Of a stretch of DNA of 64,000 bases, positions 58,561 through 61,636 are shown in pieces. Each line of letters opens with the position of its first letter. Position 1 is the first letter of the stretch. Source of the stretch: Escherichia phage N2; sequence record ON645936.1, one strand, 5' to 3'. The translations under genes were made by a program, and so were the position numbers. The notes beneath the pieces were generated by a model that saw nothing but the letters and a program-made list of their open reading frames with translations, did not search any database and was not told the DNA's origin.

Positions 58561-58564
58561 CAAT

Positions 58565-58582
58565 GGGGACCTTTCGGTCCCC
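58565..58582. terminator. Bidirectional stem-loop terminator between gene 54 (+) and alt paralogue (-)
   Basis: ggggacctttcggtcccc followed by T-rich tract. Confidence 0.6.
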
Positions 58583-58588
58583 ATATTT

Positions 58589-58879
58589 TTATTTACGGAA
58601 TGAAATAAAAGCAGCAACTGAAGCAACTAAACTGTCTTCAATATAAACTTCAATTTTTACCGGAGCTTCTGACTCAAATTTACCTGTTACTACACCTTGG
58701 AAAATGCTTTCAGTCTGCTCTGGCTTTGAAAAATTTTCAGAAGGAAAAATTCCGAACTTTTTATCTGTTCCAAAAATTTTGATAAATTCATCATAAACTG
58801 CTTCATTAAAAGCATTATCAGCAGGAATAACGCCTTCAACTACAAGTTCTTGACCTAAAAAGCGCAAAGAAGATTTCAT
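58589..58879 (-). CDS. Alt C-terminal-like fragment protein (alt.-2-like)
   Basis: 96 aa; ...QGVVTGKFESEAPVKIEVYIEDSLVASVAAFIS resembles the C-terminus of Alt in this window (...TGEVVAMTGDIEIEDRVDFASFVSS). Confidence 0.55.
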   Translation of the reverse strand: MKSSLRFLGQELVVEGVIPADNAFNEAVYDEFIKIFGTDKKFGIFPSENFSKPEQTESIFQGVVTGKFESEAPVKIEVYIEDSLVASVAAFISFRK

Positions 58880-58911
58880 TTTATGTTCCTCATGTTATGT
58901 CAGTAAATCTA

Positions 58912-59298
58912 CTATAACACAACACGAGGGACTTGTAAACTACATTTTGAACTTTTTAGTACGCGTAATAGGCATGCGTCGATTTTATACTGTTTCATTG
59001 TTTGAAGAGCAGTATCAAAAACCGCATTAATGACACCAATTGGATTTCCACCCAAGTTTTTAAGTTTAACTAATGATAGTTTCTCATTAACACCTATCAT
59101 TACGATATGCATCATTTTATCGCCTGGCTTAACGTTTTTATTTGTATCACCGCCAGAGGTGTATGTACAAAATCTAAATCCAGGAAGCACGCTTTCTTCG
59201 CCGGCTTGAATAGCAAAAATTTGAGGTATTTTATGCTTAGGATTTAAGTTAACAACCGGCGCCGAAGCGCCGTCAAATAATTCTGTAATAAGTTCCAT
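58912..59298 (-). CDS. Alt N-terminal-like paralogue (alt.-1-like)
   Basis: 128 aa; MELITELFDGASAPVVNLNPKHKIPQIF... clearly paralogous to the first ~125 aa of Alt; no ART domain. Confidence 0.7.
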   Translation of the reverse strand: MELITELFDGASAPVVNLNPKHKIPQIFAIQAGEESVLPGFRFCTYTSGGDTNKNVKPGDKMMHIVMIGVNEKLSLVKLKNLGGNPIGVINAVFDTALQTMKQYKIDACLLRVLKSSKCSLQVPRVVL

Positions 59299-59301
59299 GA
59301 T

Positions 59302-61398
59302 TTATCCTTGAACGAACTTGTAAGGCATGTTTGTAATATCTATGCAAGACGCAATAATTCCGAGAGATGATTCTGCTTTCTGTTTAACATTTGATGAAAC
59401 AAATGATGCAAAGTCAACTCTGTCTTCTATTTCAATATCACCTGTCATTGCAACTACTTCGCCGGTTTCCATTAGACGGTCACCGTCATAAATTACTGAT
59501 TCGGTGAGTTCTTCCGTAGTCATAACTTCGGCTTGAATGAGTTTTGTATTATTAAATGTTATTCCGTCATTATTAGAAGCATCAGTTATTTTGTTAACTT
59601 TGACCATCAATCCGCGCGGTAGAATAACTTCAGCTTCTGATGCTATTCCGAGACTTCCTGGATATACAACATTAACTTTATGAGCTCCATCAATTGCCCA
59701 TCCTATTTGAACTTTAACATATTCAGGATTTTCTTTATACGCTCTTATTTCGCTTGGATTAATAGTTATTCCTTCTTCATTTTTATCAACCGTTAATTCA
59801 TTGCGAGCTTCTGGTTCTAAAAGACCGATACCAGCATGTGTAATTCCAAAACGTCCAAAAATGATAGGAGTTAAAGAAGTAGATACAAAATTTCTGAAAT
59901 AGAACACTTTATTTTTAACTAGTGCTTCGTATATAGGAGCAGTCATACTTTGAGCACGATAAACTGTAATGCCTTCTGGTATACGGTCACCATTTTCAAA
60001 GGCTGAATCTAAATTATTTATCGCAGATTCAATTTCTTTTTCACTCATTACCTCATATCGTTCTGGATTGTAGCGGCCTAAAAGAAGATTATTGATGTCA
60101 GTATATCCTGCTCCACAATACTCTCTAATGCCGCGCTTTTGTGATGGAGTATATTTAGAACCATCACGGGCAATAGTAATATCAATCATTGGACCTGCAC
60201 CAACTCCAGAAAAACTATAAATCATTCGTTTGAGGAATACAGTTTTTGCTGCGTTCCAGGAATTTTTAGTTATTTCTTCCCAGACTTCATCTGACTGTCC
60301 TTTGCGGGTTTTATTATGTGTATCAAGCCAATTATCTTTATATTCTTCAAAGAATTGATTAACAGCTGCTGCGTATTTCTCTAAACATTTTATTGAAGTA
60401 GTTGGTTCATTTTTGATCGCATTAAGAATTACATCTTTAATTTTTTCAGAAACCTCATCAACCTCACTTTTTGAAACGAATTTATAGTAATGGCGAAGTT
60501 CATTTGTAGTTCCTTCGGCAATAATTTTTGCTGCCTTAGTTTTAGAAGCTAATGAATTAATTCCAAGCTTCATTTCTTCTGCTTCGGGAATTAAAGGAGC
60601 GGTAGCAGGTTTATTAAAATTGGCTGCGGTAGATTCATACTTCTGGAATAATTCGCTTTCAAATCTAGAAGATTCTAATGATTGACTTTGTGCAATTGCT
60701 CTACGGGAAATTTTAACTTTAACGATTACAGCTTGGTCAGAACGTTTATCATTTTCTTGCGCAATAGATGCTGCAATTGCCTCATTTTTAGTTACTTGAG
60801 CTCCAGTATCTTTGTTGATATAAACATCGCCGACCTTCGATTCAACTTTAGTAAAGAGCTCGGTACTAATTTCCGGAACTCCTGGAATGTCTTCTAATGA
60901 TACATTTTTGCGATGTATAAGAATATATGCATACTTTTTATCGTAATCCCAGATTTCCTTAAGAAGGACGTATCTGCCACCTGAACGACTACGGATAAGT
61001 CTATCAGCAATAACTTGAATTTGTCGAGCTTGACCAGCAGTTTTAGACTTAAGAATACGAAGCATACAAGCATCAATTTTATACTGGCGCATCGTCTGCA
61101 TTGCAACAGTAAAAACTGAATTGATATAATTAATTGGGCTTGGACCGAGACCTTTTAATTTAGCAATTGAACCTTTAGCAGTTAATGTAAAAGGAACAAT
61201 ATGCATCATTTTATCGCCCATCTTTAAATCACGGTTAGTATCACCTCCAGATGTATAGGTACATAAACGAAAGCCCGGTTGTTCAATTGCATCATCAACA
61301 TGAACTGAAAAAATTTGTGGTATTTTCTTCTTTGGATTTAAGTTTGTAATCGGAAGAGTAGTATCTTCGTCAAATAATTCTGTAATAAGTTCCATCAT
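59302..61398 (-). CDS. alt: ADP-ribosyltransferase Alt (packaged, modifies host RNA polymerase)
   Basis: 698 aa; MMELITELFDED N-terminus; ART R-S-E signature region (YFRNF...STSL...EAEVILP). Confidence 0.85.
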   Translation of the reverse strand: MMELITELFDEDTTLPITNLNPKKKIPQIFSVHVDDAIEQPGFRLCTYTSGGDTNRDLKMGDKMMHIVPFTLTAKGSIAKLKGLGPSPINYINSVFTVAMQTMRQYKIDACMLRILKSKTAGQARQIQVIADRLIRSRSGGRYVLLKEIWDYDKKYAYILIHRKNVSLEDIPGVPEISTELFTKVESKVGDVYINKDTGAQVTKNEAIAASIAQENDKRSDQAVIVKVKISRRAIAQSQSLESSRFESELFQKYESTAANFNKPATAPLIPEAEEMKLGINSLASKTKAAKIIAEGTTNELRHYYKFVSKSEVDEVSEKIKDVILNAIKNEPTTSIKCLEKYAAAVNQFFEEYKDNWLDTHNKTRKGQSDEVWEEITKNSWNAAKTVFLKRMIYSFSGVGAGPMIDITIARDGSKYTPSQKRGIREYCGAGYTDINNLLLGRYNPERYEVMSEKEIESAINNLDSAFENGDRIPEGITVYRAQSMTAPIYEALVKNKVFYFRNFVSTSLTPIIFGRFGITHAGIGLLEPEARNELTVDKNEEGITINPSEIRAYKENPEYVKVQIGWAIDGAHKVNVVYPGSLGIASEAEVILPRGLMVKVNKITDASNNDGITFNNTKLIQAEVMTTEELTESVIYDGDRLMETGEVVAMTGDIEIEDRVDFASFVSSNVKQKAESSLGIIASCIDITNMPYKFVQG

Positions 61399-61418: not shown

Positions 61419-61426
61419 TATTTATA
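61419..61426 (-). promoter_or_regulatory. Late promoter TATAAATA (minus strand) upstream of alt
   Basis: Plus tatttata at 61419..61426, 21 nt upstream of alt ATG; followed upstream by stem-loop 61432..61449. Confidence 0.5.
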
Positions 61427-61447: not shown

Positions 61448-61636
61448 TTAATAATCTAGTGGTAAGAGAGTACGATATATTTCAAACTTTGGCCCTTTTT
61501 CATAGGCATCAAATGTTTCTGTGAATTTATTATAAGCATATGCATCTACAAATTCGAGAACGATTTGTGATACAGAAGTAGAAACATCTCCACCTTCTTT
61601 TTGAGCCACGACAATTGTTTCTAAGTAAGCTTTCAT
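61448..61636 (-). CDS. Hypothetical small protein, translationally coupled to DNA ligase
   Basis: 62 aa ORF; ATGA start/stop overlap with gene 30 stop. Confidence 0.5.
   Translation of the reverse strand: MKAYLETIVVAQKEGGDVSTSVSQIVLEFVDAYAYNKFTETFDAYEKGPKFEIYRTLLPLDY

Follow-up and report, generated by a model that had tools for sequence, protein, structure and literature searches.

The Alt protein of phage T4 (gpAlt) is a packaged NAD:arginine ADP-ribosyltransferase (ART). It is a non-essential component of the scaffolding core, present at ~40 copies per head, from which the gp21 protease cuts off a small N-terminal peptide (PMC9958956), and a capsid targeting sequence of ~10 amino acids (aa) has been established for T4 internal proteins (PMC7697877). 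Next to alt, T4 carries two short open reading frames (ORFs), alt.-1 and alt.-2, which Nolan et al. (2006) listed as alt paralogues (PMC1524935) and which, according to a note in the T4 GenBank record, together represent an old duplication of the first part of alt. The annotation of phage fPS-2 describes the corresponding ORF as "similar to N-terminal of Alt; putative pseudogene". Here we analyse the equivalent locus of Escherichia phage N2 (sequence record ON645936.1), within a stretch of 64,000 nucleotides (nt) hereafter called the window. Its central element is a 128-aa ORF (58912..59298, minus strand), the unsplit counterpart of T4 alt.-1 plus alt.-2, which is already known in substance since it was flagged in the T4 and fPS-2 annotations. 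We conclude that this ORF is very probably a non-functional, at best vestigial, decaying deletion remnant of a second, 685-aa alt paralogue, and that it is followed by an independent gene, alt.-3.

Relatedness of the 128-aa ORF to Alt

The ORF listing and megablast identify the window as a Tequatrovirus (T4-like phage), 539 phage records matching its alt region at a top identity of 97.4%. Its gene order, with gp29, gp48 and gp54 on the plus strand and then alt.-3, the 128-aa ORF, alt, alt.1 and the DNA ligase gene gp30 on the minus strand, is identical to that of T4 (NC_000866). The initial annotation correctly reported alt together with two small minus-strand ORFs, of 128 and 96 aa, and interpreted these as the N- and C-terminal parts of a tandem alt duplicate that had lost its central ART domain. 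The N-terminal resemblance is well founded: the 128-aa ORF aligns with the N-terminus of the window Alt with 73/117 identities (62%; BLASTP E=3e-49), ending at residue 117, and matches positions 2-120 of the PHROG 802 profile, "Alt-like RNA polymerase ADP-ribosyltransferase" (E=5.5e-51). The first 9 residues, MELITELFD, are common to both proteins at the sequence level. A word-indexed protein search with the two small ORFs returned just 3 and 7 matches and was replaced by exhaustive HMMER and tblastn searches. No Pfam family was detected in the 128-aa ORF at E<=0.1, the ART catalytic domain (PF03496) included, whereas the full-length alt of the window does encode this domain (R-S-ExE type).

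The choice of T4 alt.-1/alt.-2 (NP_049810, NP_049809) as the comparison was apt. Like the 128-aa ORF, these are flanked by alt and alt.-3 in the same orientation, share the 1,699-bp deletion junction described below and are 96.8% identical to the window over 431 nt. T4 lacks one A near codon 54 and consequently has alt.-1 (61 aa) and alt.-2 (67 aa), where the window retains a single ORF. The ~117 N-terminal residues of T4 Alt are likewise 62% identical to the remnant, MELITELFD included, while the remnant differs from T4 Alt in lacking the ART domain and in containing only half of the N-terminal module (N-module).

A single deletion within a second alt gene

Most close relatives match our 3.3-kb query as two pieces spread across 5.0 kb. 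What PP01 has in addition is an intact 685-aa gene that separates alt from alt.-3 (1041-3098 in the locus sequence), and the same intact gene occupies this position in T2, RB14, RB68, HP3, Killian and PYPS2T (701-2758 in each). Identity of the PP01 paralogue to Alt is 42% over the whole length and 60-75% within the first ~240 residues; the paralogue bears the R (YRG 481), STS (507) and ExE (EAE 587) motifs. Full-length copies also occur in T6, RB3 and RB32, among others. The central 1.66 kb of the full-length paralogue is present in 402 GenBank phage records, and the deletion junction probe is covered in 90; an exact junction search of IMG/VR returned 2 contigs. The full-length paralogue is the majority state and, judging from these distributions, evidently the ancestral one. 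Our literature search found no paper characterising the 685-aa second paralogue.

Aligned to PP01, the window shows ~98% identity on both sides of one single gap of 1,699 bp (2,560 versus 861 columns). Over the first 116 codons, nucleotide identity to the full-length paralogue (T2, RB14, where it is named "alt.-2", RB68, PP01 and others) is ~98%, with the same flanks, and codons ~117-685, including the ART R/STS/ExE motifs, are absent. The junction lies at 58951..58959 (minus strand) and consists of the microhomology CTAAA (58955-58959) followed by A-AGT; the PP01 breakpoint sequences, GTACTAAAGAGT on the 5' side and GTCTAAAAAGT on the 3' side, are joined in the window within CTAAA. In the alignment the junction of T4, SYGD1 and F26 is the same as that of the window, and the junction sequence …GTACTAAAAAGTTCAAAATGTAG… is shared with T4. 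What was lost is considerably more than the central ART domain supposed in the initial annotation: everything after residue ~116 is gone, from the second half of the N-module through the helical middle and the ART domain to the C-terminus.

With its length of 1699 = 3x566 + 1, the deletion shifts the reading frame, so that the final paralogue codons are translated out of frame and the original stop codon TAG (58940-58942) is bypassed. The native part of the remnant thus comprises codons 1-116 (58951..59298, minus strand), or about half of the ~240-aa conserved Alt N-module. It is followed by a 12-codon tail, SKCSLQVPRVVL, and a stop (58912..58950, minus strand), recognised as non-native coding sequence by direct reading and by alignment to PP01. 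This tail runs through the last paralogue codons, across the old stop and into the alt.-3 promoter, and translation terminates at 58912-58914, inside the alt.-3 -10 box; because it reads the end of the old gene out of frame, the tail is not native protein. Peptides unique to the remnant are ...IDACLLRVLKSSK and the tail peptide CSLQVPR.

A third state of the locus was found in vB_EcoM_SCS4 (hereafter SCS4), which has a single chimeric gene (880-2940) and no second copy. The chimera combines Alt residues 1-~150 (98-100% identity) with paralogue residues ~150-685 (94-100%), and represents a natural unequal crossover of the tandem paralogues. As such it is evidence of recombination between the tandem copies.

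Taken together, we propose that an ancestor carried a full-length second alt-like ART gene in tandem, directly downstream of alt, as most Tequatroviruses do, and that one 1,699-bp deletion, bounded by two CTAAA microhomologies, removed codons ~117-685. This deletion may have arisen in an ancestor shared with T4, or may have been exchanged with T4 later by recombination. The resulting out-of-frame fusion would let translation pass the old stop and terminate 12 codons later inside the alt.-3 -10 box, the alt.-3 promoter, gene and terminator being left intact. The window remnant is still free of the codon-6 stop and the A-run frameshift seen in most relatives (see below), and its product may therefore still be made from the late alt transcript through translational coupling. 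Any product would have just about half of the Alt N-terminal module and would likely not be maintained by selection.

Decay of the remnant across relatives

Nineteen junction-bearing sequences were read, namely that of the window together with 16 from GenBank phages and 2 from IMG/VR contigs. The ORF is intact in four (the window, SYGD1, AV121 and FL23) and broken in 15 of the 19 carriers, by a GAA to TAA change at codon 6 (E6; 59281-59283 in window coordinates) in 11 and by a -1 frameshift in an A-run near codon 54 (~59135-59139) in 8, both lesions being combined in 4. The codon-6 stop is the only lesion in SG1, 215Ecol030PP, EC128, PTE-Eco15, fPS-2, fPS-90 and AV119. T4, F25 and both IMG/VR contigs have the frameshift without the stop, F25 with a second frameshift besides, and Lutter, F26, pSe_SNUABM_01 and HY03 have both lesions. 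In HY03 (389-825) the codon-6 stop and the -1 frameshift are followed, another ~60 nt on, by a 7-nt insertion that brings back the original frame, which is layered decay within one copy. In a wider tblastn survey, 44 of the 60 best records were frameshifted.

The same 116 codons behave differently in the full-length gene. Seven full-length alleles have 25 synonymous variants, 2 nonsynonymous ones and no stops in this stretch, compared with about 8 nonsynonymous (stop included) versus 9 synonymous variants private to the remnant (Fisher p=0.007). Constraint on the remnant thus appears relaxed relative to these codons of the full-length alleles. The neighbouring gene alt.-3, which served as a control, is intact in 20/20 sequences, with synonymous changes far outnumbering nonsynonymous ones. 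Time-course omics of T4 point the same way. In supplement 4 of PMC9697503, whose column order we inferred by comparison with supplement 6, alt.-3 falls in the early class for both RNA and protein, whereas alt.-1/alt.-2 are middle for RNA, with protein class NA.

Several observations weigh against the interpretation of the ORF as a decaying remnant. The commonest remnant polymorphisms are mostly synonymous; being shared with full-length alleles, these were probably imported by recombination. The 19 sequences are a non-random sample, GenBank being rich in redundant T4 laboratory isolates, and for very small proteins little can be concluded from their being missing in shotgun proteomics. Finally, the window ORF is open, with a good Shine-Dalgarno sequence (AAGGA, 59305-59309), an ATG start 4 nt past the alt stop and an N-terminus beginning MELITE..., and a 128-aa polypeptide may be expressed in this phage.

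The remnant as a predicted partial module

An exhaustive HMMER scan of 1.84 billion representatives identified 62 proteins with the N-terminal region found in the remnant, almost always as residues 1-120 of proteins of 600-712 aa. The ART Pfam domain was found in 49 of 59 scanned N-module proteins, the others being short fragments or two spurious CBM48 repeat proteins, and none of the 59 had the N-module fused to a non-ART cargo. In an alignment of 48 diverse Alt-like proteins, residues 1 to ~240 form one uninterrupted conserved block that has no linker at 117. When Alt was modelled with AlphaFold2, a shallow alignment restricted to close orthologues gave a mean predicted local distance difference test score (pLDDT) of 37, and the alignment of diverse proteins was used instead (mean pLDDT 85.5, and 82-97 over residues 10-230). 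In the latter model the breakpoint falls between a strand (110-116) and a helix (124-138), within an alpha/beta unit. Given this internal break and the continuity of the module to ~240, the remnant is predicted to hold about half of the module.

alt.-3 is an independent early gene

The 96-aa ORF (58589..58879, minus strand) is an independent conserved early gene, alt.-3, unrelated to the Alt paralogue. It matches Pfam family PF17602 (DUF5498) over positions 1-96 of 96 (E=1.4e-64; 215 bits against a gathering cut-off of 27) and is 100% identical in amino acids to T4 Alt.-3 (P39493; DUF5498), the two genes differing by 10 synonymous and no nonsynonymous changes. It is preceded by an early-type sigma-70 promoter, (G)TTTACA, 17 nt, TGtTATAGT (58911..58939, minus strand; 10/12 consensus, extended -10 TG), which has an annotated counterpart at this position in phage Lutter, and by its own GAGGA Shine-Dalgarno sequence. 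A single full-length copy was found in 836 phage records from several Tevenvirinae genera, some copies being less than 60% identical; 498 GenBank phage records have it at >=90% identity. Mutations that read through the T4 alt.-3 stop, adding 14 or 21 residues, allow escape from the CmdTAC defence, such C-terminal extension mutants blocking CmdA degradation, while deletion of alt.-3 gives no escape (PMC11618068). In the window alt.-3 ends ...FRK-TAA (58589-58600), directly before the terminator hairpin described below.

The tandem duplicate read from the two small ORFs is hence half right: the 128-aa ORF does represent a tandem paralogue without the catalytic domain, but the 96-aa ORF does not belong to it. 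Were they the N- and C-terminal halves of one Alt duplicate minus its central ART, as their adjacency on the same strand might suggest, alt.-3 should resemble the Alt C-terminus. The best high-scoring segment pair of alt.-3 against the window Alt (BLASTP, E=2.1) lies mid-protein, away from the C-terminus, and that against the full-length paralogue is a faint motif-level likeness, VVEGVIPADNAFNEAVYD versus LIEGTIVPPSEQLKESVYD (7/19 identities, E=0.10). Profile-profile alignment against 59 Alt-family sequences (hhalign) gave a probability of 0.15% (E=0.39). Moreover, full-length alt.-3 copies, 92-99% identical at the nucleotide level to that of the window, follow intact 685-aa paralogues, each complete with a C-terminus of its own (PP01, T2, RB14, RB68, HP3, Killian and PYPS2T). 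The comparison with PP01 and T2 refutes the two-part reading; considering also the promoter, the Shine-Dalgarno sequence and the Pfam family that alt.-3 has of its own, and its single-copy presence in diverged genera, we regard it as extremely unlikely.

Expression signals and possible roles of the remnant

A T4-type late promoter box, TATAAATA (61419..61426, minus strand), was located upstream of alt by exact motif match and direct sequence reading; the stop codon of alt.1 and a GGCCT-TCA-AGGCC hairpin precede it. From this box down to 58584 the minus strand showed no terminator-like site, so that a late transcript could cover alt, the remnant and alt.-3. At 58563..58584, between the converging gene 54 (plus) and alt.-3 (minus), lies a bidirectional intrinsic terminator hairpin with a 9-bp GC-rich stem on both strands (fold -20.7 kcal/mol, z=-4.6), annotated as such in fPS-2, fPS-90 and Lutter. 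With a late promoter, a Shine-Dalgarno sequence, an ATG and no intervening terminator, late co-translation with alt is plausible where the ORF is open.

The coupling to a late gene is one argument for a functional small protein, in which the 128-aa fragment would be made late, be targeted to the prohead by its Alt-like N-terminus and there be injected or serve as a scaffold for exchangeable cargo. The location of gpAlt in the scaffolding core and the trimming of its N-terminal peptide by gp21 (PMC9958956), together with the 9 residues shared with Alt, are consistent with such targeting; the ORF is intact in the window, SYGD1, AV121 and FL23, and the SCS4 chimera implies that the N-module can carry either ART body. 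Nevertheless, 15 of the 19 carriers are disrupted, and the commonest lesion, the codon-6 stop, eliminates precisely the N-terminal peptide. T4 multiplies with the ORF split in two, and its Alt.-1 and Alt.-2 have no protein class in the proteome. What is left is half of a continuous 240-aa module with a tail of out-of-frame promoter DNA, and the module proteins scanned carry ART domains, the exceptions being the fragments and the two spurious CBM48 proteins mentioned above, with no other cargo. We consequently judge a functional protein improbable, and the second injected protein or cargo-exchange scaffold suggested in the initial annotation unsupported; the scaffold in particular is rejected, as the N-module was found fused to ART domains only. 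A more restricted version, applying to the minority of phages with an open ORF, this one included, would have the 128-aa polypeptide made late, enter the prohead core through its N-terminal peptide and be injected or compete with Alt for packaging sites; this we consider quite improbable.

Alternatively, the DNA rather than the protein might be kept, as a non-coding spacer or leader by which the end of the late alt transcript and the early promoter of alt.-3 stay properly arranged, the ORF being incidental. At its 3' breakpoint the deletion stops 15-20 nt short of the alt.-3 -35 box and spares the promoter exactly, alt.-3 is under strong purifying selection, and the nucleotide identity of the remnant stays at 95-99% even in carriers with a broken ORF. 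That identity, however, is equally explained by a recent deletion and recombination with full-length alleles; SCS4 has no remnant and only a ~60-nt spacer before alt.-3, and an Rfam scan found no structured RNA family in the alt region, its matches in the window being transfer RNAs (tRNAs) elsewhere. A spacer role thus seems highly unlikely, and a decaying remnant of the second alt gene remains our preferred explanation.

The alt gene and other features of the window

The alt gene itself encodes the packaged Alt ADP-ribosyltransferase (59302..61395, minus strand; 697 aa from the likelier ATG at 61395). Its ORF extends over 59302-61398, or 698 aa from the first ATG (61398), one codon upstream of the second. 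The window Alt is a mosaic with respect to T4 Alt: identity is ~99% over residues 1-245 and ~95% over the final ~100 aa, whereas the helical middle and ART domain (246-600) reach just ~50%. In the protein database Alt falls into one 97% cluster of 641 members, with the next drop to 72%. This gap and the mosaic structure suggest at least two Alt allele classes, differing in the catalytic cassette between conserved ends.

Upstream, alt.1 (62 aa, 61448-61636, minus strand) matches Pfam PF24647, "Phage_blade" (E=1e-29); a search of the available literature on "phage blade" and alt.1 found nothing, and NCBIfam gave zero matches for the four proteins of the locus. The tRNAs form an eight-gene cluster at 5600-6952 (minus strand; Rfam RF00005, 59-73 bits), comparable to the T4 tRNA region.

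Comparison with T4 and other Tequatroviruses

The locus in itself is of little weight, being a classic example of how a gene decays in an accessory region of a phage genome. It does bear on annotation: neither the 128-aa ORF nor alt.-3 should be annotated as an ADP-ribosyltransferase, although several GenBank records label the remnant as such. It also bears on T4. The "old duplication" of the T4 GenBank note is better read as a deletion within a complete second ART gene, which most Tequatroviruses have kept. Consequently T4, the laboratory model, lacks an ADP-ribosyltransferase that its relatives have.

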